Part shown: positions 1,312 to 56,312 of the stretch, one piece after another
Layout: each line of letters opens with the position of its first letter
Numbering within the stretch: the stretch's first letter is position 1
Assembly (NCBI GenBank): GCA_020632035.1
Contig: JACKGG010000002.1
Location: 88,095 to 152,094 of the forward strand
Source: Candidatus Nomurabacteria bacterium
GTDB taxonomy: Bacteria > Patescibacteriota > Minisyncoccia > Phycocordibacterales > UBA918
Direction of reading: 5' to 3'
Length of the DNA stretch: 64,000 nucleotides
Notes under the pieces: generated by a model
The model's database searches: none
What the model was told of the DNA's origin: nothing
The model's input: only the letters and a program-made list of their open reading frames with translations
Translations under genes and position numbers: made by a program

Positions 1312-1751
1312 GACCGATTAGCTCAGCTGGTAGCGGTGAATAAGTCCCCCAGACTAATTCACCATCTCCATTGTAGAGGTCTACTTTGGCAAAATAGTGT
1401 AGAATACCAGACAATCAAACCGACCGATTAGCTCAGCTGGTAGCGGTGAATAAGTCCCCCAGACTAATTCACCATCTCCATTGTAGAGGTCTACTTTGGC
1501 AAAATAGTGTAGAATACCAGACAATCAAACCGACCGATTAGCTCAGCTGGTAGCGGTGAATAAGTCCCCCAGACTAATTCACCATCTCCATTGTAGAGGT
1601 CTACTTTGGCAAAATAGTGTAGAATACCAGACAATCAAACCGACCGATTAGCTCAGCTGGTAGCGGTGAATAAGTCCCCCAGACTAATTCACCATCTCCA
1701 TTGTAGAGGTCTACTTTGGCAAAATAGTGTAGAATACCAGACAATCAAACC
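1312..1751 (+). repeat. four perfect tandem copies of a 110-bp unit made of tRNA-Val fragments
   Basis: Units start at 1312, 1422, 1532 and 1642 and are identical. Each is GACCGATTAGCTCAGCTGGTAG (tRNA-Val nt 1-22) + a 37-nt insert CGGTGAATAAGTCCCCCAGACTAATTCACCATCTCCA (inverted repeat GGTGAAT/ATTCACC) + TTGTAGAGGTC (anticodon-stem 3' half and variable loop) + 40 nt of non-tRNA sequence. Confidence 0.9.
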
Positions 1752-1824
1752 GACCGATTAGCTCAGCTGGTAGAGCGCTACATTGACATTGTAGAGGTCA
1801 CAAGTTCAAGTCTTGTATCGGTCA
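1752..1824 (+). tRNA. tRNA-Val (anticodon GAC)
   Basis: Cloverleaf GACCGAT/ATCGGTC acceptor, D-arm GCTC-AGCTGGTA-GAGC, anticodon arm CTACA-TTGACAT-TGTAG, T-arm ACAAG-TTCAAGT-CTTGT, discriminator A. CCA is not encoded. Confidence 0.85.
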
Positions 1825-1847
1825 CATTGCTTTTATTAAGAATTATC

Positions 1848-1907
1848 AGCTGGTAGCGGTGAATAAGTCCCCCAGACTAATTCACCATCTCCATTGTAGA
1901 GGTCACA
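1848..1907 (+). repeat. fifth, partial copy of the tRNA-Val-derived unit, immediately upstream of the DHH gene start
   Basis: AGCTGGTAG + the same 37-nt insert + TTGTAGAGGTCACA. Its GAGG lies 8 nt upstream of the ATG at 1912. Confidence 0.7.
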
Positions 1908-1911
1908 AATT

Positions 1912-4136: not shown

Positions 4137-6359
4137 ATGGAGGAAAAACAACAACCAAACATACCGGAGATTTTCTTGTCTCCATACAATCCAGTTAATC
4201 ACGAAAACTCACTGTACAAGATGTGGGAAGACTCTGGTTACTTTAATCCAGACAAATGTGTCGAAGATGGTATAGCTGATAGAGATGCTGAGACTTTTTC
4301 AATTGTCCTACCACCTCCTAATGTGACCGGCATCCTCCACATGGGCCACGCCGCTATGCTCGCGGTTGAAGATATTCTAGTTAGATACAATCGAATGCAA
4401 GGTAAGCGCACTCTCTGGATCCCAGGGACAGACTCAGCTGCTATTGCTACTCAATCAAAAGTTGAAAAGCTTGTCTCAAAAGAAGAAAAGAAAAGTCGGC
4501 ATGATTTAGGCCGAGAAGAATTCCTGAAGCGAGTGGATGTTTTTGTTGAAGATAGTAAGGCTACTATTGTGAATCAAATAAAAAAGATGGGTTCTAGTCT
4601 TGATTGGTCACGTTACGCTTTTACTTTAGATGACCAGCGCTACAAAGCTGTAATGACTGCCTTTGTAAATATGTACAACGACCAGCTCATCTACCGGGCC
4701 GACCGCATCGTAAACTGGGACCCAAAAGGCCAAACTACAATATCTGATGACGAAATAGTCCATGAGGAACGCCAAGGTAAGCTTTATACTTTTAAATACA
4801 ACAAGGAGTTTCCTATTACCATCGCTACTACCAGACCAGAAACCAAAGTTGGAGACACAGCGGTAGCGGTAAACCCAGACGATAAACGCTACCAAAAATA
4901 CATTGGGCAGACTTTTGATTTTGTTTTTTGCGATGTGCCGGTGAGTGTTACTGTCGTGGCTGATACGGAAGTTGATCCTGAGTTCGGTACTGGCGCGGTC
5001 GGCGTCACCCCTGCCCATAGTAAAATCGACTGGGATATAGCCGACCGATCTAATATCATCCGCCGGCCCCAAGTGATAAACGAATACGCCAAAATGACCG
5101 TGGCCGGACGACTCAATAACTTGAAGGTTGAAGCGGCTCGAGCGGAGGTGGTTAAGTGGCTTGAAGAAGAAGGCCTTTTAGAAAAAATCGAAGACACTAT
5201 TCAAAACATAGCAACGGCCGAGCGAACTGGAGGAATCGTTGAACCACTGCCCAAACTTCAGTGGTGGATTGATGTCAATAAGAAATTCACCCTCAAGCAC
5301 TCAGAAATAACCGGCATAGAAAGTGGTAGTGAAGTAACTTTGAAAGAACTGATGATCAAAGCTGTTGAAAACGGCGATACTGATATTTTTCCTGAACGCT
5401 TCAAGCGAGTATATTTTAACTGGATTGAAAATTTGAATGACTGGTGTATTTCACGCCAAATTTGGTACGGACACCGCATCCCAGCCTGGTACAAAGATGG
5501 TGAGACTAAAGTACAAATACAATCTCCAGGCGCTGATTGGGAGCAAGAATCCGATACTCTAGACACTTGGTTCTCATCTGGACTGTGGACTTTCTCTACC
5601 CTGGGTTGGCCAGAACAAACAGACGACCTAAAAACCTACCACCCAACTACAGTACTAGAAACCGGTTATGATATTATTTTCTTCTGGGTAGCTCGAATGA
5701 TTTTGATGAGTACTTACCACCTCGGACAAGTACCGTTTAAAAATGTATACTTGCACGGACTAGTCCGTGATGAAAAAGGGAAGAAAATGAGTAAATCAAT
5801 TGGCAACGTCATTGATCCACTCAACATGATTGAAAAGTTCGGTGCCGATGCAACTCGCCTGTCGCTGATAGTCGGAGCTGCTCCGGGTAATGACGTACCT
5901 CTTTCCGAAGACAAAATCCGCGCCTACAAAAAGTTTGCTAACAAGGTTTGGAATATTAGTCGATTTATCCTGACCAGCATCGATGATGCTGACTGGAGAC
6001 AAACTCCAGAACTAACCAAGAGAGATAACGAAATATTAACTGACCTTAGAAAAAACATTCTAGAAGTCACAGAAGATATTGAAAGGTTCAGTCTTTATCT
6101 TGGCGCAGAAAAAGCTTACCACTACGTTTGGCACGAGTTAGCTGATAAAGTTCTCGAGGAATCCAAAGACATTCTTAACGGGGACAATATGTCAGAAAAA
6201 TACGCAAGGCAATACGTACTAAAAGAATGTCTAGTTGCTTCACTTAAGACCCTCCACCCTTTCATGCCATTTGTCACAGAAACAATCTGGCAAGAGCTTC
6301 CAAAAGAATTGAAAGACCATGACATTCTTATGGTTGCAAAGTGGCCGATTGGTGAATAG
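4137..6359 (+). CDS. valS: valyl-tRNA synthetase (short form without the C-terminal coiled-coil)
   Basis: HIGH-type motif PPPNVTGILHMGHA and KMSKS motif (KMSKSIGNV); class I editing aaRS architecture; 740 aa. Confidence 0.9.
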   Translation: MEEKQQPNIPEIFLSPYNPVNHENSLYKMWEDSGYFNPDKCVEDGIADRDAETFSIVLPPPNVTGILHMGHAAMLAVEDILVRYNRMQGKRTLWIPGTDSAAIATQSKVEKLVSKEEKKSRHDLGREEFLKRVDVFVEDSKATIVNQIKKMGSSLDWSRYAFTLDDQRYKAVMTAFVNMYNDQLIYRADRIVNWDPKGQTTISDDEIVHEERQGKLYTFKYNKEFPITIATTRPETKVGDTAVAVNPDDKRYQKYIGQTFDFVFCDVPVSVTVVADTEVDPEFGTGAVGVTPAHSKIDWDIADRSNIIRRPQVINEYAKMTVAGRLNNLKVEAARAEVVKWLEEEGLLEKIEDTIQNIATAERTGGIVEPLPKLQWWIDVNKKFTLKHSEITGIESGSEVTLKELMIKAVENGDTDIFPERFKRVYFNWIENLNDWCISRQIWYGHRIPAWYKDGETKVQIQSPGADWEQESDTLDTWFSSGLWTFSTLGWPEQTDDLKTYHPTTVLETGYDIIFFWVARMILMSTYHLGQVPFKNVYLHGLVRDEKGKKMSKSIGNVIDPLNMIEKFGADATRLSLIVGAAPGNDVPLSEDKIRAYKKFANKVWNISRFILTSIDDADWRQTPELTKRDNEILTDLRKNILEVTEDIERFSLYLGAEKAYHYVWHELADKVLEESKDILNGDNMSEKYARQYVLKECLVASLKTLHPFMPFVTETIWQELPKELKDHDILMVAKWPIGE

Positions 6360-7916: not shown

Positions 7917-8193
7917 TGTAAGATACCTCTGACTAACTAATTTGTGATATACACGATATATGGGTTATAAAAAAAATACCCACTCCTGTTTCAACTACTG
8001 CTGGTTGTATGCGTGTACCCCACGCTGGACTATGGTGACAACCCCCGAAAAAGAACAATATTCTGCCTTTTATCATTAGGGTACGTCTACCAAATATGTC
8101 ATAACACTGTAAATCTTGGTATTTAAACATTTACGCCACCACTATGATTAAACGATCTGTATTACAGCATAAAGTATTATTCCGTTCAAGCCA

Positions 8194-8210
8194 GGAGCAG
8201 GCTCGGTCAC
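8194..8210. repeat. direct partial copy of the tRNA-Phe 3' segment (12 nt, GGAGCAGGCTCG) fused to GTCAC
   Basis: Matches the tRNA-Phe gene (antisense) at 8388-8399. The match stops inside the T-loop. It sits ~175 bp from the tRNA 3' end. Confidence 0.6.
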
Positions 8211-8312
8211 TCTCACGGCTATTTTCTTCGTAAACTCATAATATAGCTCGTTCCATTGACCTCCACTCGTCGCGTTCCTCGGCTCCGCCAGCGGACTTTA
8301 TCGCGACTCGGC

Positions 8313-8380
8313 TTCGAGCCTGCTTCCAAGCTACAAACGAAAACAGCCTATATGCGGAGCATATAGGCTGTACGTTTGTG
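8313..8380. repeat. inverted 19-nt copy of the tRNA-Phe 3' end (TTCGAGCCTGCTtCCAAGC) followed by a 48-nt perfect palindrome abutting the tRNA 3' end
   Basis: 8313-8331 reads in tRNA sense on the plus strand, opposite to the gene. The palindrome is TACAAACGAAAACAGCCTATATGC-GGAG-CATATAGGCTGTACGTTTGTG. Confidence 0.65.
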
Positions 8381-8877: not shown

Positions 8878-8930
8878 GCCCCTTTAGTTAAATGGATATA
8901 ACCGCTCACTCAGAGCGGGCATTGTAGGCT
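8878..8930 (+). repeat. pseudo-tRNA: a copy of the 5' two-thirds of tRNA-Arg (acceptor, D-arm, anticodon arm with an altered loop, start of T-stem), followed by a 27-nt hairpin
   Basis: GCCCCTTTAGTTAAATGGATATAACCGCTCAC is identical to 9062-9093, then diverges. It lacks a T-arm and 3' acceptor. The hairpin CTGAAAAAG..CTTTTTCAG is at 8931-8957. Confidence 0.7.
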
Positions 8931-9061
8931 GAAAAAGACTGGGAGACTTTTTCAGAAGGTTAACTAGCATTTTATGACGTAAGGAAATAAAATGGTGATA
9001 ACCTATACTGATCTCGTAGAGATAGATTCCGTTGGAATCGAACCTATTGGTTACAATTGAA

Positions 9062-9136
9062 TACTTAAGCCCCTTTAGTTAAATGGATATAACCGCTCAC
9101 TCCTAACGAGCAGTTGTAGGTTCGATTCCTGCAGGG
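9062..9136 (+). tRNA. tRNA-Arg (anticodon CCT)
   Basis: GCCCCTT-TA-GTTA-AATGGATA-TAAC-C-GCTCA-CTCCTAA-CGAGC-AGTT-GTAGG-TTCGATT-CCTGC-AGGGGGC-A. There is one A·C mismatch at the base of the anticodon stem. Confidence 0.75.
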
Positions 9137-21534: not shown

Positions 21535-21553
21535 CCTTGCGGGTGTTTTTTGT
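21525..21553 (-). terminator. intrinsic terminator at the rnpB 3' end
   Basis: AAAAAACACCC-TTGC-GGGTGTTTTTT. Confidence 0.6.
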
Positions 21554-21900
21554 ACACATAAGCCGGATTCTGTCAGGCCGAAGCCCGGATGATTATTTAC
21601 CTAGGATGTATATTGCTATACACCTCTTGCGACTCTCTTTGCCGGCTCAAAATCCCAGAAGGATATTGAGCCGGCAAAGCGCGGTCTTGCACGCAGGTAA
21701 GGATTTAGCCGTTTCACCCTCTTGGTTTCCCAAAAGGCTATTCCCGAAGGAACTCCTCAGCTTTCGCTTTGAACGTCTCTGCTCGCACCTCTTATACTGC
21801 TATACGACGGGTGTTACCCGCTACCATCCTCCACAAATAAATGTGGGCGTGTCCGGACTTTCCTCCTCGTATAAATACGAGGCAATCATCGTGTCTGTAC
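21552..21900 (-). ncRNA. rnpB: RNase P RNA (bacterial type), ~350 nt
   Basis: The minus strand carries a P3 hairpin CCTCGTATTTATACGAGG followed by P4 GAGGAAAGTCCGGAC. Near the 3' end it carries ACAGAATCCGGCTTATG (the P4'/P2' consensus ACAGAAUCCGGCUUA). Ends are approximate. Confidence 0.75.
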
Positions 21901-22300
21901 ATTATGCAATATTATTATAAAATTGCAACTTTAATATAAAAATAAAAGGACCCTAGTGGACTCTGCCGAGCATATTGCTACTCAGCGAGGCCCACGTTAG
22001 GGTACTTGACTTTTTCCTATGAGAAGTTGCGCTATTAAGCGTCATTCTCTTTAGCTGGCCAATAGGCTGCTTTTGTAGGGTTGTTTAGCTTGAATGCCGA
22101 TTCATAATTTTAATCAACGAACTGTCGGGTCATGACAGATCATGTTTTCCTCCCATTGTTGGTTGTTTTAAAAATGTCCTGCAGTTGCTAGTATATCGCT
22201 GGATTGAGCGAGCTAGTGGTTAAAACCCACCAGAACTTCAATTTCCCGCTCGAACTGCAGGAAAGGCATACTAGCATGTAATAGATAACTTGTCAACTAT

Positions 22301-28850: not shown

Positions 28851-29348
28851 TTAATCTAGATAACTATCAAAATACACTGCGTGGCAGGTGTAGCCACCTG
28901 GGTTCTTCTGGAGATAATCTTGGTGGAAATCTTCAGCTGGCCAAAATCTGGTGAGGGGTTCTAGAGTGGTCACAACCTCCCCGTCCCATCTCTCAGATTC
29001 ATTCACTATTTCTATCATTTCTTCAGCGATTTTTTTCTCCTCTTCGTTACTAAAAAATATTGCTGACCGATACGAAGTGCCTTTATCGTTCCCCTGTTGA
29101 TTAAGTGTAGTCGGATTGTGTATCTGAAAAAAGAAATCAAGTATGTGTCGGTAGTCGGTTAGTTCGTCATCATACTCTATCTCAACGGCTTCAGCGTGGC
29201 CTGGGTGATTTTCGTAGGTTGGATTGTCGTTTCTGCCTCCGGTGTAGCCGGCTTCGGTCGAGATAATGCCTGGTTGGGAGCGGATGAGGTCTTCGAGTCC
29301 CCAGAAGCATCCACCTGCTAGTACTGATTTTTTAATCATGAGTTGCAA
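28851..29348 (-). CDS. msrA: peptide methionine sulfoxide reductase MsrA
   Basis: GCFWG active-site motif near the N-terminus; typical length. Confidence 0.85.
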
Positions 29349-29818
29349 TTATAGATTTTCTTCTCTCTACGAGAGCTGTACACCTTGTCGCCATCTTACT
29401 TCGTAAACTCGTAAGATTGCTGGCAAGGTCTTGCGAAATGGGGCCCGTCCCATTTCTCACCCAGAAGCATCCACCTGCTAGTACTGATTTTTTAATCATG
29501 AGTTGCAATTATAGATTTTCTTCTCTCTACGAGAGCTGTACACCTTGTCGCCATCTTACTTCGTAAACTCGTAAGATTGCTGGCAAGGTCTTGCGAAATG
29601 GGGCCCGTCCCATTTCTCACCCAGAAGCATCCACCTGCTAGTACTGATTTTTTAATCATGAGTTGCAATTATAGATTTTCTTCTCTCTACGAGAGCTGTA
29701 CACCTTGTCGCCATCTTACTTCGTAAACTCGTAAGATTGCTGGCAAGGTCTTGCGAAATGGGGCCCGTCCCATTTCTCACCCAGAAGCATCCACCTGCTA
29801 GTACTGATTTTTTAATCA
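29300..29818. repeat. three perfect 160-bp tandem units plus a 38-bp partial unit. Each contains the msrA start region and a ~106-nt hairpin-rich element.
   Basis: Units begin at 29301, 29461 and 29621, with a partial at 29781. Each unit is the msrA first 13 codons + 5' flank, followed by the element TCTCTACGAGAGCTGTACACCTTGTCGCCATCTTACTTCGTAAACTCGTAAGATTGCTGGCAAGGTCTTGCG + GAAATGGGGCCCGTCCCATTTC + TCAC. Confidence 0.9.
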
Positions 29819-29821
29819 CAA

Positions 29822-38507: not shown

Positions 38508-38583
38508 CAGGGACTCGAACTTTTATAGGTTTCTATATATAGCTCAAATGAATTTTCTGCCGGACAGGGACTCGGTCACGAAT
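38508..38583. repeat. direct partial copies of the tRNA-Gln 3' segment (13 nt at 38508-20; 18 nt at 38557-74), the second fused to GTCACGAAT
   Basis: CTGCCGGACAGGGACTCG is identical to 38735-38752 of the tRNA-Gln gene (antisense). The match ends in the T-loop. Confidence 0.65.
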
Positions 38584-38663
38584 AAATTTTCTACGAAAAT
38601 TTTTCTCGACCCCGACTCGCCGACAAGCCCTCCCTTCGGTCGTCTTGTATACCGGCTCCGTCT

Positions 38664-38718
38664 TTCGAGTCCCTGCGGTCAGGTAATTTAGTAAAACCCC
38701 AATGCATACGCATTGGGG
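38664..38718. repeat. inverted 12-nt copy of the tRNA-Gln T-arm (TTCGAGTCCCTG) plus a hairpin (CCCCAATGC-ATA-CGCATTGGGG) abutting the tRNA 3' end
   Basis: It reads in tRNA sense on the plus strand, whereas the gene is on the minus strand. Same layout as the Phe and CAT loci. Confidence 0.6.
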
Positions 38719-38733
38719 TCAAACTAAATTATG

Positions 38734-44291: not shown

Positions 44292-44365
44292 GAGCCAACA
44301 CACAGAATCGAACTGTGGACCTCGTCCTTACCATGGACGCGCTCTACCGACTGAGCTATGTTGGC
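44292..44365 (-). tRNA. tRNA-Thr (anticodon GGT)
   Basis: The reverse complement gives GCCAACA-TA-GCTC-AGTCGGTA-GAGC-G-CGTCC-ATGGTAA-GGACG-AGGTC-CACAG-TTCGATT-CTGTG-TGTTGGC-T. Confidence 0.85.
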
Positions 44366-44970: not shown

Positions 44971-45044
44971 TGTCGATGGGAGGAATTGAACCTCCGACCT
45001 TAGCTTTATGAGTGCTACGCTCTAACCAACTGAGCTACATCGAC
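44971..45044 (-). tRNA. tRNA with a CAT anticodon (elongator Met or Ile2/lysidine type)
   Basis: The reverse complement gives GTCGATG-TA-GCTC-AGTTGGTTA-GAGC-G-TAGCA-CTCATAA-AGCTA-AGGTC-GGAGG-TTCAATT-CCTCC-CATCGAC-A. Confidence 0.8.
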
Positions 45045-45094
45045 ATGTGTATGTGGGGCTAGAGTACACTATTTTGTTCATTGCTTCAACACTT

Positions 45095-45790
45095 TTATGC
45101 TAGTTTTCCACCAAACTTTTCTAGTATATATTCAGCCTTCTTAATATCTTCCGGGTAGCCAATTGGTAGCCATTTTTTTTGCTCAATTATTTTAACTTTT
45201 TTAAAACTGGCACACTGAGTCAACATATCAGTTGCATACAGCTCACCAGCATCAGAAACAGCAACATCATTTTCAAACAACGCCAAATCAGTAACAAAAC
45301 CTCCGGTGTTGACTAAGTTAGATGTTGGCTCTTTTGGTTTCTCAACAATAGCTTTCAGGGTGCCATCTTCATTTTTTTCCAATACACCAAACAACTCTGG
45401 GGTTTCAGAATATACTGCCAAAATTGAATACGGCTCCTGTACCGCCTCAACCAAAGCTTCAGCTCCGTGTATATCATCTCCATTAAGCACAATGAACTTA
45501 CCAGTTAATAAATTTTTTGTACATAAGAGAGCGTTACCAGTTCCTCCCGCTGGATTATCTTGATGAACATAAGTTACTTTACGTCCGTAAAACTCTTCGC
45601 CACAATGAGCTCTGATTTGCTCCTCTAGATAATTGGTCACAATAACCAATTCTGTAATATTAGCTGGAAGAGCCTCAACAATGTGATCTAGGATTGGTTT
45701 TCCACAAACTTTGATTAATGGTTTAGGTATAGTTTTGGTCAAAGGGAGCATTCTCGTTCCCTTTCCAGCAGCTAATATTACACATTGCAT
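45095..45790 (-). CDS. sugar-phosphate nucleotidyltransferase (NTP_transferase family)
   Basis: N-terminal ILAAGKGTRMLPLT..PKPL nucleotide-binding loop; 231 aa. Confidence 0.65.
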   Translation of the reverse strand: MQCVILAAGKGTRMLPLTKTIPKPLIKVCGKPILDHIVEALPANITELVIVTNYLEEQIRAHCGEEFYGRKVTYVHQDNPAGGTGNALLCTKNLLTGKFIVLNGDDIHGAEALVEAVQEPYSILAVYSETPELFGVLEKNEDGTLKAIVEKPKEPTSNLVNTGGFVTDLALFENDVAVSDAGELYATDMLTQCASFKKVKIIEQKKWLPIGYPEDIKKAEYILEKFGGKLA

Positions 45791-45813
45791 AAGTATTACT
45801 ATTACTAAATTGT

Positions 45814-46677
45814 TTATCTATCGCAATACTCCACCATTACTTTCTTCAGCTCTGGATAATCAACAGCGTAGGTAAGGATTGCTCTTAAGTAGTTTTCTGG
45901 GTCACCTGTAGTTATCCATTTACCGTCTTCTACTTCTTTTGCCAAAAATCTTCCTCCTTCTTGAATATAGTTTCTAATAGCGTCAATGATCCACAACTCG
46001 TTTCCTTTACCGCAAGCTGTTCGAGCAAGAATGTCTACAATTTCACGATTTAGAATCATTCGACCAAAGTCTGCATGACGTGAAGGTGCTTCTTCTTTGG
46101 CTGGTTTTTCAACAATGTCTTCGAGCTCAATTCCATCTCCTCGGTATTTAACTATTCCGTATTTATCTACCACATCTTCAGACACTTCTTGAACACCAAT
46201 CATCGGAGACTTTTCTAGTTTATAGAGATCAACCAACTGCTTAGTGAAAGACACTTTACTCTTCACCAAATCATCTCCAAAGGCATAAATAAATGGTTCG
46301 TCACCAATCAAAGTTGAAGCTGATAAAAGTGGAGTGCCGTTCCCATATGGACCTTTCTGACGCACATAAATAAAATTAGCCATTTCAGATAATTTTTGTA
46401 CTTCTTTAAGAATTTCTACTTTTCCTGTTTTTTCTAGACTTTGCTCTAGTTCAAAAGATCGGTCAAAATGATCCTCAAGTGCTTTCTTGTCCCAGCGCGT
46501 AACCATTATGATGTCTTTAATCCCGGCTTCCACCAGCTCTTCCACCAAATACTGAACTATCGGTTTATTTATAATCGGCAACATTTCTTTTGGTTGAGCT
46601 TTAGTGGCCGGTAATAATCTAGTTCCTGAGCCGGCTACTGCTATGACTGCTTTTGTTATTTCCATATATGCGGGCAT
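45814..46677 (-). CDS. galU: UTP--glucose-1-phosphate uridylyltransferase
   Basis: VIAVAGSGTRLLPATKAQPKEMLPI and the VQEV.E..VDKYGIV motifs; 287 aa. Confidence 0.8.
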   Translation of the reverse strand: MPAYMEITKAVIAVAGSGTRLLPATKAQPKEMLPIINKPIVQYLVEELVEAGIKDIIMVTRWDKKALEDHFDRSFELEQSLEKTGKVEILKEVQKLSEMANFIYVRQKGPYGNGTPLLSASTLIGDEPFIYAFGDDLVKSKVSFTKQLVDLYKLEKSPMIGVQEVSEDVVDKYGIVKYRGDGIELEDIVEKPAKEEAPSRHADFGRMILNREIVDILARTACGKGNELWIIDAIRNYIQEGGRFLAKEVEDGKWITTGDPENYLRAILTYAVDYPELKKVMVEYCDR

Positions 46678-46877
46678 TATAACATCATATATTTATAATT
46701 ATAAACTGACCCCTACAGTTCTATAGCAGAGAAAAGGGCAGCTATAATAAAGAAAAGACTGAGTATAAAGCCAATTATTTTCTTATTGCAGAATGAGAAA
46801 GTCTAGGAGACTTATGAAGGCTTATTAAGGGTATTTTGAAGAATGAAAAATACCTAATGAGTGGACAGGTTCTGTAA

Positions 46878-46899
46878 GGACCGGAATCGAGTCACGAAT
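46878..46899. repeat. direct partial copy of the tRNA-CAT(47054..47124) T-arm (CCGGAATCGA) fused to GTCACGAAT
   Basis: Identical to 47063-47072 of the tRNA gene (antisense). The break falls in the T-loop. GTCACGAAT is the same 9-mer as at the tRNA-Gln locus. Confidence 0.55.
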
Positions 46900-46991
46900 C
46901 ACTAAGTATATTTATTCGGATTGCTCCAAATCTACAAGTGTTCTTGACCCCGCCTCAGCCTATTTCGTCTCCCAGACGAAGGCTTCCGGCC

Positions 46992-47050
46992 GTTCGATTC
47001 CTCCCGCTGGAATAAAAACAAAACCAGCATGAAGCTGGTTTTGTTTTTAT
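46992..47050. repeat. inverted partial copy of the tRNA-CAT 3' end (GTTCGATTCC-TCCCGC) plus a bidirectional terminator hairpin abutting the tRNA 3' end
   Basis: In tRNA sense on the plus strand. The hairpin is AAAACCAGC-ATGA-GCTGGTTTT with a T-run. Confidence 0.55.
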
Positions 47051-47053
47051 TTG

Positions 47054-47124
47054 TTGCGGGGCCCGGAATCGAACCGGGGTCTGGAGGTTATGAGCCTCCC
47101 GAGGTACCTCTCCTCTACCCCGCT
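47054..47124 (-). tRNA. tRNA with a CAT anticodon and an A1·A72 mismatch (initiator-like acceptor end; could also be Ile2)
   Basis: The reverse complement gives AGCGGGG-TA-GAGG-AGAGGTA-CCTC-G-GGAGG-CTCATAA-CCTCC-AGAC-CCCGG-TTCGATT-CCGGG-CCCCGCA-A. Position 1 A does not pair with 72 A. Confidence 0.7.
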
Positions 47125-47310
47125 ATGTATTTAACTTTACTTTTTCTGCAACGTTGGAGCAATCTCTCCTCATCTCTACGAGATCTGTACACCTTGTCGC
47201 CATTTTATTTCGTAAACTCACAAAATTGCTGGCAAGGTCTTGCGGAAGCGTCCCACGCTTCCTCACCCCGCTATGTATTTAACTTTACTTTTTCTGCAAC
47301 GTTGGAGTAC
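47117..47310. repeat. the same ~106-nt element as in the 29.3-kb array, flanked by a 43-bp perfect direct repeat that includes the first 8 nt of the tRNA-CAT 5' end
   Basis: DR CCCCGCTATGTATTTAACTTTACTTTTTCTGCAACGTTGGAG at 47117-47159 and 47266-47308. The element at 47161-47265 has the same 5' core as the 29-kb copy, then a different hairpin, GGAAGCGTCCCACGCTTCC, and the same TCAC end. Confidence 0.85.
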
Positions 47311-55250: not shown

Positions 55251-55325
55251 CAGATAATTATACCTAATAATAGAGACAGAAAATCACCTTGCAAACAAAA
55301 AACGCCAGCAGACGCTTTTTACTTT

Positions 55326-55465
55326 GTCCCGAGGACCGAATTGTTATTTTTGTCCCGAGGTCGGTCCTCGGGACAAACAGACCTCGGGCAAAGTGGCATT
55401 AGAGAACATCAGGACAAAGCTTCATCCTATGCCCCGCTATCCCGAGGTCCGACCTCGGGATAGGT
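55326..55465. repeat. cluster of REP-type palindromes (GTCCCGAGGtcgGtCCTCGGGAC family) 3' of the RAYT gene
   Basis: Copies or half-copies at 55326-38, 55352-75, 55376-88 and 55438-65. Confidence 0.8.
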
Positions 55466-56130
55466 TTGCGCTTGAGTAGTCAAGCCAATGAGTGATCTGA
55501 TCATTGAAAGAATTTTCCTCCAGAAAGTATTGAGGAAAACTATCTTTAGAGAGAACATTAGACACAACTCTATTCACTCCCTGATAATCAAGGTAGCTTG
55601 AATATTTATATTCCTGCAAGTGTTTCAAAGCTTCATTTCTATTTTTAATACCAGTCTCTTTCCACTCTGGCTCAATTAATTTGATTGGATTTAGATGAAT
55701 GTACGAAAATAAATATTTTAGATATTCATCTGTATCAGCTCGCTTAGCTTTGTATCTACCTTCAAATAAGACACCTGTGCGATCATGTTTCTTATTAAAG
55801 TACATGGAGTATCCAGTTGAAAGTTTTTTCATAAACTGACTAATTCCTCCTTCGTTTACTTCTTTTATTAAAATATGAAAATGATTGGGCATTAATACGT
55901 AAGCACCAATGTCAACAAGGACCTTATTTCTATCAATTAAAAATAAATCGTCATATTTTTTACCTGCTTTATATTCATCCTTTATTGAAACAGGATTTGT
56001 ACTGTTGCATAAATACAGCAATGCCATAAAACGGTCATAGTCTGACTTTGTTTTGTATATTACCCTTTTCTCTGTACCTCGATTATAAATGTGGTAATAC
56101 TCATCGACAGCAATAGAGTTATCTTTCAAC
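55437..56130 (-). mobile_element. REP-associated tyrosine transposase (RAYT, IS200/IS605-like Y1 HuH transposase). The start is probably the internal Met (MLKDNS..), because the upstream part of the ORF reads through a REP palindrome.
   Basis: YHIYNRG, HuH motif MPNHFHILI, and a catalytic-Tyr region (RYKAKRADTDEYLKYLFSYIHLNP). REP palindromes flank it on both sides. Confidence 0.7.
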
Positions 56131-56149
56131 ATACAATTAATATACCACA

Positions 56150-56257
56150 CTGTCCCGAGGACCGACCTCGGGACAGATAAACATTTACTTACAAACAACA
56201 CAAAAAGTGGCCAGAAAGCGCTTTTTGATATTGTCCCGAGGTCGGACCTCGGGACAG
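56150..56257. repeat. two REP palindromes 5' of the RAYT gene
   Basis: CTGTCCCGAGGACCGACCTCGGGACAG (56150-77) and TTGTCCCGAGGTCGGACCTCGGGACAG (56231-57). Confidence 0.8.
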
Positions 56258-56312
56258 ATTTTCATTACTTATATTATAACTTAGCTATAAATCAAGTATT
56301 TTAACTTACAAA

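Follow-up and report, generated by a model that had tools for sequence, protein, structure and literature searches.

In integron attC sites and in the attP(+) site of CTXphi, imperfect inverted repeats fold on one strand, the stem so formed is the recombination site, unpaired bases are conserved and one strand is preferred; after integration by CTXphi or into integrons, an inverted copy is separated from a hybrid direct copy by a spacer of about 90 nt at one junction. REP/REPIN sequences with their RAYT and the miniatures of IS200/IS605 are small, non-coding, hairpin-rich and strand-specific and lie at the 3' ends of genes; their hairpins are fixed and similar at the ends, their fixed target is short (4-5 nt) and they make no long target duplication. 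In tRNA-like RNAs (the tmRNA domain, bacterial Y RNA, viral TLS) acceptor and T-stem pairs form one helix. Elements with a tyrosine integrase and their integrase-less derivatives occupy the 3' ends of tRNA, tmRNA and rplL genes, supply a replacement 3' end and accrete in tandem. The direct repeats of tyrosine-integrase elements, 12-54 bp long, hold the exact 3' end of tRNA genes or of rplL (PMC4701971).

The window analysed here is a stretch of 64,000 nucleotides in which eight tRNAs were identified using ARAGORN. Behind one of them, a tRNA-Met(CAT) separated from galU by a long spacer, lies a non-coding tail that can be aligned with a family of cassettes of about 190 bases which is absent from Rfam. 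The targeting of tRNA, tmRNA and rplL 3' ends by this family follows a logic that is already known; hairpin arms derived from the target and placed around a conserved core have, to our knowledge, not been known before. Full-text literature searches returned no description of such cassettes, and a paper on tRNA introns of Patescibacteria does not mention them. The parts of the tail are as follows:

47053-47124, minus strand: tRNA-Met(CAT), here tRNA-Met2, with no encoded CCA (ARAGORN; Rfam tRNA model, 57.3 bits)
47053-47071, minus strand: segment D, from C56 to the 3' end of tRNA-Met2
47011-47052, minus strand: A-tract/hairpin/T-tract, the terminator-like tip hairpin, directly 3' of tRNA-Met2 (from the sequence)
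46993-47010, minus strand: antisense arm CCAGCGGGAGGAATCGAA (sequence comparison and fold)
46950-46992, minus strand: P2 domain (RNAfold; its architecture is that of the conserved P2 of the family)
46891-46948, minus strand: P3 domain, a long AT-rich hairpin (fold)
46879-46890, minus strand: D2, a displaced second sense copy of the tRNA 3' part (TCGATTCCGG, diverged beyond), which pairs with the antisense arm as P1

Along the tRNA strand the order is tRNA-Met, tip hairpin, antisense copy (T loop to 3' end), P2, P3 and a second sense copy beginning in the T loop, and segment D, the tip hairpin and the antisense arm make up a single long quasi-palindrome. The direct copy of the antisense T arm at 47062-47071 is CCGGAATCGA at 46881-46890, which is joined to GTCACGAAT at 46891-46899; the inverted copy is GTTCGATTCC at 46992-47001, with an imperfect continuation to 47010. 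Within CCAGCGGGAGGAATCGAA an exact 9-nt complement of the tRNA T loop and T stem is followed by a small internal loop and then by the complement of the acceptor 3' strand, CCCGC. P2 consists of an outer helix GCC/GGC, an internal loop GGA/GA and an inner hairpin TTCGTC-TGGGA-GACGAA, and the base of P3 is formed by GTCA (46945-46948) paired with TGAC (46891-46894). A metagenome (Logan) contig matches window positions 45009-47078 at 99.9% identity, and the strain is present in the read set SRR12358675. The GalU encoded in the window shows 100% identity to a protein assigned to Candidatus Nomurabacteria, which places the window in a CPR bacterium.

Two sister cassettes with the same layout are present in the window:

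8190-8377, minus strand: cassette of tRNA-Phe (tip hairpin 8332-8377, antisense arm 8313-8331, core 8206-8312, D2 8190-8205)
38557-38732, minus strand: cassette of tRNA-Gln (tip hairpin 38685-38732, antisense arm 38664-38684, core 38575-38663, D2 38557-38574)

The copies of the tRNA end at these two sites are longer than at tRNA-Met2 (12-18 nt), the direct and inverted copies lying at 8194-8205 and 8313-8324 for tRNA-Phe and at 38557-38574 and 38664-38675 for tRNA-Gln. About 36 nt past D2 the T arm of tRNA-Gln is repeated in sense orientation a third time, as a short copy (GTTCGAGTCCCTG, 13 nt) that is kept in two Nomurabacteria genomes (window 38508-38520 and L023 5114-5140, where L and a number denote a comparison locus).

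The original prediction, that the spacer between galU and tRNA-Met2 is not featureless, was borne out: every piece that it named is in place and the layout lies beyond chance, a direct match and an inverted one, each of 10 nt or more, occurring together 1, 0 and 1 times per 20,000 shuffles of each 400-nt flank for the three tails. Nor are such fragments scattered at random, since among the 51 tRNAs of the window and 26 loci the pattern of an inverted followed by a direct copy is found solely downstream of tRNAs and never upstream. Recurrence of the layout at every minus-strand tRNA with a free 3' flank, which had also been claimed, describes the window correctly: it is present at all three such tRNAs (Met2, Phe and Gln) and absent at tRNA-Thr and the other tRNA-Met, both of which abut genes, as well as at the three plus-strand tRNAs. 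The minus strand is incidental: in other genomes the tail takes the strand of its tRNA, whichever that is. The direct T-arm copy joined to GTCACGAAT is likewise present, but the 9-mer GTCACGAAT was rejected as a signature, being not significant by itself (14 matches at up to one mismatch against 12.3 expected) and common to only two of the three tails. As for the proposed terminator hairpin, the structure with its flanking A and T tracts exists at 47011-47052 and recurs in the same stereotyped form in 58 unique metagenome cassettes among the matches listed, but a simple consensus terminator scan makes no call there because the T run belongs to the stem.

Secondary structures were predicted using RNAfold, which returns one and the same three-way junction for every tail folded. 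The junction is closed by P1, in which the antisense arm, complementary in the tails generally to the tRNA from T54 to its 3' end, is paired with D2. The consensus P2 is GC-rich and consists of an inner hairpin separated by a GGA/GA internal loop from a short outer helix. At the base of P3, GGUCR pairs with YGACC, so that GTCAC forms one helix with the GGTCA/TTGACC found 50 nt away. The original prediction had missed both this single folded junction on the sense strand and its GTCAC/GGTCA pairing, as it had missed the absence of the insertion from close relatives that is described below. The sense strand of the Met2 tail folds at -49.5 kcal/mol (z = -3.85) and the opposite strand at -40.8 kcal/mol; over all 33 aligned cassettes the sense strand is without exception the more stable one (mean difference -7.9 kcal/mol, p=5e-7). 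In an RNAalifold alignment of 19 cassettes, including the Met2 tail, 25 of the 39 consensus pairs show compensatory changes. The outer helix of P2 occurs in seven Watson-Crick combinations (196 of 206 pairs Watson-Crick, 6 G·U and 1 A·C), and 17 of the 19 sequences retain a sense-strand G·U pair at the base of P3. Compensatory changes, the conserved G·U and the strand asymmetry together indicate selection on single-strand pairing. Unpaired bases also recur across targets, namely a bulged A beside the complement of nucleotide 73 and a TT bulge in the tip hairpin.

In its inverted repeats (P1), these bulges and the sense-strand preference the cassette resembles attC and the CTXphi attP. It differs from both in that its stem is derived from the target and contains no fixed R or L box and no dif mimic. 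It further departs from integrons in lacking GTTRRRY (the T loop, GTTCGA, does not conform), a cargo gene and, among the ORFs next to the cassettes examined, IntI, and nothing links it with XerCD, unlike CTXphi attP. The likeness to tRNA-like RNAs is that P1 also joins acceptor and T-stem pairs in one helix, from which in some cases a side hairpin branches where the two stems meet; unlike in those RNAs, the core takes the place of the T loop and the antisense arm covers the complements of the T loop and of the trailer. The Rfam models for tmRNA, Y RNA and tRNA do not match the cassette.

The tRNA-Gln arm pattern was scanned in one genome per species and yielded 19 loci, about 14 of which are tails just behind a tRNA. 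Those in CPR bacteria belong to Saccharibacteria, Campbellbacteria, Paceibacterota and Nomurabacteria and those outside CPR to Eggerthellaceae, Eubacteriales, Clostridia and Oscillospiraceae MAGs; the non-CPR copies have other cores but the same GA-minihairpin-GA motifs and housekeeping genes as neighbours. A 21-mer from P2 of the tRNA-Gln tail in the window matches at least 120 metagenome contigs. Among the matches listed, P2 starts 65-75 nt after a tRNA on the same strand in 72 of 126, at least 27 tRNA anticodons carry P2 cassettes, and D2 begins at C56 in 39 of 51 unique complete cassettes with a modal exact length of 19 nt. The tRNA boundary of the cassette accordingly falls between nucleotides 55 and 56, in the T loop. 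The nucleotides before D2 vary from junction to junction, with no conserved tetranucleotide, and D2 is decayed in many copies. Where the 21-mer match had no tRNA, the targets included the 3' end of tmRNA and the end of the rplL reading frame (last codons and stop codon); hairpin, antisense arm, P2, P3 and duplicate succeed one another there as they do at tRNAs. The target is therefore the last ~19-25 nt of a conserved gene and is not defined by the T loop. In viral contigs the searches found neither the tRNA-Gln tail pattern nor the P2 21-mer, on which ground a phage origin was rejected. The boundary of a genomic island was rejected on account of the housekeeping genes next to the cassettes. 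No recombinase, transposase or reverse transcriptase lies beside any cassette examined, the neighbouring ORFs being housekeeping genes or genes of unknown function.

With tyrosine-integrase elements the cassette shares the range of targets, the replacement 3' end, the tandem accretion and the direct repeat of the exact gene end (modally 19 nt from C56, and also at tmRNA and rplL). It could on that account be an ordinary double-stranded att remnant, that is, a CIME-like miniature of tyrosine-integrase prophages or elements, in which the core is the arm-binding region of the integrase and the structure is incidental; the replacement 3' end together with the terminator, and the occurrence of accretion, are what such a remnant would offer. 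We nevertheless regard this as improbable. The cassette has only ~190 bp and no gene, and it carries an added antisense copy of the target, for which a duplex att site would have no use. The core is conserved and covaries on a single strand, with the compensatory changes, G·U pair and asymmetry that speak for selection on single-strand pairing, and one core family serves at least 27 targets, integrases being target-specific. No integrase gene is present in the cassettes or among the neighbouring ORFs, and no larger parent element was seen.

Comparison loci were retrieved via GalU homologues of 83-86% identity, and they show that the tail is an insertion missing from close relatives. In L005, L006 and L007 the tRNA-Met2 orthologue is followed by a hairpin only, extended 11 nt into the tRNA and without a core, and then by the galU promoter; the orthologue in L002 has no tail and contains a group I intron instead. 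At the other tRNA-Met a cassette of ~205 nt is present in L002, whereas the identical tRNA with the same downstream gene stands without a cassette in L005 and L006. At tRNA-Gln the window, L002, L013 and L023 carry a cassette and L005 and L006 do not, and in L025 a chain of three cassettes with two different cores stands behind a single tRNA-Gln. Tail-like cassettes, possibly orphan or ectopic copies, also occur in L023 at 2680-2870 and 4214-4395, 1-2.7 kb from the tRNA-Gln gene; one of them immediately follows a protein-coding gene. The intron of L002 (9617-9860, in the anticodon loop; RF00028, 65.8 bits) has a degenerate pseudo-tRNA copy upstream and agrees with the recent report that tRNA introns are frequent in Patescibacteria.

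The coreless sites of L005, L006 and L007, where the terminator stem reaches into the tRNA, and the continuous quasi-palindrome of tRNA end, hairpin and antisense arm would also result if template switching at a palindromic terminator extended its hairpin into the tRNA, in which case the tails would be by-products of replication error, neither element nor function. This process cannot give a conserved and covarying core on at least 120 contigs and at many targets, nor a boundary at C56; core conservation largely refutes it and we judge it very improbable as an account of the tails. Template switching may be the way in which the antisense arm stays matched to its gene.

The cassettes are more alike between genomes than the DNA around them: the housekeeping DNA of L013, L023 and L025 is 66-70% identical to that of the window and the cassette modules are 80-97% identical. 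Modules have been recombined between loci. P3 of the Met2 tail is ~80% identical to P3 of the tRNA-Gln cassette of another Nomurabacteria genome (L023 5176-5249), P2 of the tRNA-Gln tail in the window is 97% identical to that of L025, and families of tip hairpins are common to cassettes at different tRNAs. Over its 50 nt P2 is almost invariant and about as conserved as the tRNAs themselves. Within the window the three cassettes are mutually dissimilar, which argues against a recent burst in this genome.

Conservation of this degree could equally be sought in a structured RNA useful to the host, co-transcribed by read-through with the tRNA, tmRNA or rplL; it might act, for example, in 3'-end processing, as an insulator or stabiliser of the transcript or as a mimic of the tRNA acceptor and T stem. 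Its arms would have to match the upstream gene, and the patchy distribution would be due to loss. The cassette always lies on the sense strand at a fixed 65-75 nt from the gene end (among the matches listed), it covaries strongly and keeps its G·U pair, P2 is conserved about as tRNAs are when neighbouring genes are at 66-70%, and some copies have a hairpin precisely where the acceptor complement meets the T-stem complement, as in a tRNA-like junction. Set against these are a terminator-like hairpin between gene and cassette, the finding of no promoter of the cassette's own and of no terminator after D2 in the tails of the window, and the decay of D2 in many copies. Past the acceptor end the antisense arm, moreover, simply continues as a palindrome into the trailer and does not take the shape of a tRNA 5' end, identical tRNAs exist without a cassette, and tandem chains and shuffled modules resemble accretion. 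We consider an RNA of this kind a serious but rather unlikely alternative.

Known RNA families were searched for using the Rfam 15 covariance models at gathering and at permissive thresholds in the window and 10 loci. Apart from tRNAs, the searches returned only RNase P and a single group I intron. In the spacer of the window only the tRNA itself scores, the next-best hits (E>0.1) overlapping the tRNA or the hairpin; no family covers the region even at permissive thresholds, so that the suspicion raised with the original prediction, that a known non-coding RNA might explain the conserved pieces, is not supported. Eight loci with other cassettes had no match either. The tmRNA and SRP RNA were rejected as occupants of the spacer by the ARAGORN and Rfam searches, and 6S RNA, ribozymes, Drum and the other families of Rfam 15 did not come near or reach their family thresholds. 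A group I intron was rejected because the cassettes give no RF00028 hit, against 65.8 bits for the true intron of L002, and because the last core nucleotide is C or A. By inspection, a hammerhead ribozyme does not fit (the GAA strand exists, but CUGAC-C is located within P3 and an A-U closing pair is missing; Rfam gives no hit), and neither do K-turn, box C/D or H/ACA guide designs fit the junction. TIGR arrays and the IS110 bridge RNA (PMC12045711) have a different architecture, and no Tas or IS110 gene is present. A MITE was rejected since the inverted arms are copies of each target and not a fixed TIR. Two other RNAs of the window came up in these searches: RNase P RNA at 21547-21901 (minus strand) reaches only 106 bits against a threshold of 100, and tRNA-Thr at 44292-44365 is missed by the Rfam fast filters at gathering level and obtains 66 bits in the permissive run.

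Structured non-coding additions are found at five of the eight tRNA genes in the 64-kb window, and other repeats accompany the tails. A second structured element, core A, is located as follows:

47160-47267, minus strand: core A upstream of tRNA-Met2
8912-9068, plus strand: core A in an upstream pseudo-copy of tRNA-Arg, after G53
29345-29820, minus strand: core A, three times, in the msrA array
L006 9640-9740: orthologue of core A, with compensatory changes

Core A contains a hairpin with loop TGGGA, and a helix ACCTTG/CAAGGT around a hairpin whose loop is GAGTTTACGAA; GTACAG and TCTC-GTA-GAGA come next. On its 5' side there is always a duplicated 5' fragment of a gene, and on its 3' side a promoter-like stretch and the intact gene; in L025 it fills the slot of the tail core, and it has three matches in viral contigs. 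The msrA array (window 29300-29820, minus strand) comprises three perfect 160-bp tandem units before the intact msrA, each combining the initial 40 nt of the msrA coding sequence with core A and a spacer bearing TATAAT. The msrA gene natively holds GGGGACTCGAAGACC, which resembles the antisense T arm joined to the start of core A; it may be a site of ectopic recombination. Upstream of tRNA-Val (window 1312-1908, plus strand) there are four perfect 110-bp tandem units, each with tRNA nucleotides 1-22, a 35-nt hairpin (CGGTGAATAAGTCCCCCAGACTAATTCACCATCTC), tRNA nucleotides 36-48 and a spacer; an extra partial unit at 1846-1908 reaches the start of the ORF at 1912-2766.

For window 46879-47052 our best reading, which we hold tentatively and as somewhat short of probable, is that of a worn member of a group of non-autonomous, site-specific insertion cassettes that act as a folded single strand. 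The group consists of non-coding cassettes of ~190 bp at the 3' ends of conserved, highly expressed genes (tRNA, tmRNA, rplL) of CPR bacteria. In gene orientation such a cassette has its own copy of the last ~19-25 nt of the gene, followed by the A-tract/hairpin/T-tract, the antisense copy and the two-hairpin core; by virtue of this copy the gene stays intact, and the original gene end, displaced behind the cassette, is D2. On the sense strand the antisense arm pairs with either sense copy, producing a stem that presents the target sequence as a duplex closed by the core. The data show the anatomy, the distribution, the covariation, the strand bias and the filled and empty sites; how the cassette would move, by which enzyme and as what kind of single strand is inferred. 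The active form would be the folded single strand, either ssDNA or RNA made by read-through from a strong host promoter. By analogy with attC and the CTXphi attP, both sites of tyrosine recombinases, the target-derived stem may serve as the recognition or recombination site. An enzyme would act in trans; a tyrosine recombinase and the Y1/RAYT-type HUH protein encoded at 55437-56201 are candidates.

The insertion cassette is favoured as a reading by the three-way junction, covariation and strand bias, by the filled and empty sites, the tandem accretion and the C56 boundary, and by the target range, the sharing of modules, the conserved unpaired bases and a repeat geometry like that of tyrosine-integrase elements (PMC4701971). 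It is weakened by the lack of a recombinase, transposase or reverse transcriptase beside the cassettes examined and by the fact that no circular or excised form was seen, and it leaves the re-matching of both arms to each new target unaccounted for. The conserved G·U pair and the near-invariant P2 of 50 nt are features seen more typically in functional RNAs than in DNA sites. The dissimilarity of the three cassettes in the window, the lack of an R-box GTTRRRY and the absence of the tRNA-Gln pattern and the P2 21-mer from viral contigs weaken it as well.

The RAYT-like ORF at 55437-56201 (minus strand; Pfam Y1_Tnp, E=9e-9), a candidate only as far as the cassette enzyme is concerned, is flanked within 55300-56260 by four REP-like palindromes (GTCCCGAGGTCNGACCTCGGGAC) and lies between type IV pilus genes, as it does in L005 and L006. 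A Y1 HUH gene with REP palindromes of its own is thus present in the window, and the cassettes share with REP/RAYT and IS200/IS605 elements their small size, lack of coding capacity, richness in hairpins, strand specificity and position at gene 3' ends. In contrast to those elements, the cassette has target-derived arms and a duplication of ~19 nt, and its tip hairpin is unlike P3. The REP of the RAYT of L006 is absent from the window. At L006 580-1100 the 5' end of the RAYT gene is partially duplicated four times together with its upstream REP (GGGGTCAGACACC), another case of the habit of duplicating gene 5' ends.

Taken further, the cassettes may represent a new class of miniature mobile element, perhaps acting via a self-propagating RNA, whose recognition stem is made of a sense and an antisense copy of the gene end that it occupies, with one core and arms re-templated for each target, in CPR bacteria and apparently in some Firmicutes and Actinobacteria; we think this possible, if doubtful. 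CPR genomes measure no more than about 1 Mb. A mobile cassette would be a compact element that re-matches its arms to each target and integrates without disrupting it, and it may be of interest for the evolution of reduced genomes and as a recombination tool. If it acts as an RNA, it would constitute an abundant and highly conserved non-coding family, not in Rfam, that is tied to the expression of tRNAs, tmRNA and rplL. Either reading accounts for the tRNA-fragment "debris" that can confuse tRNA annotation and the prediction of att sites in CPR genomes.
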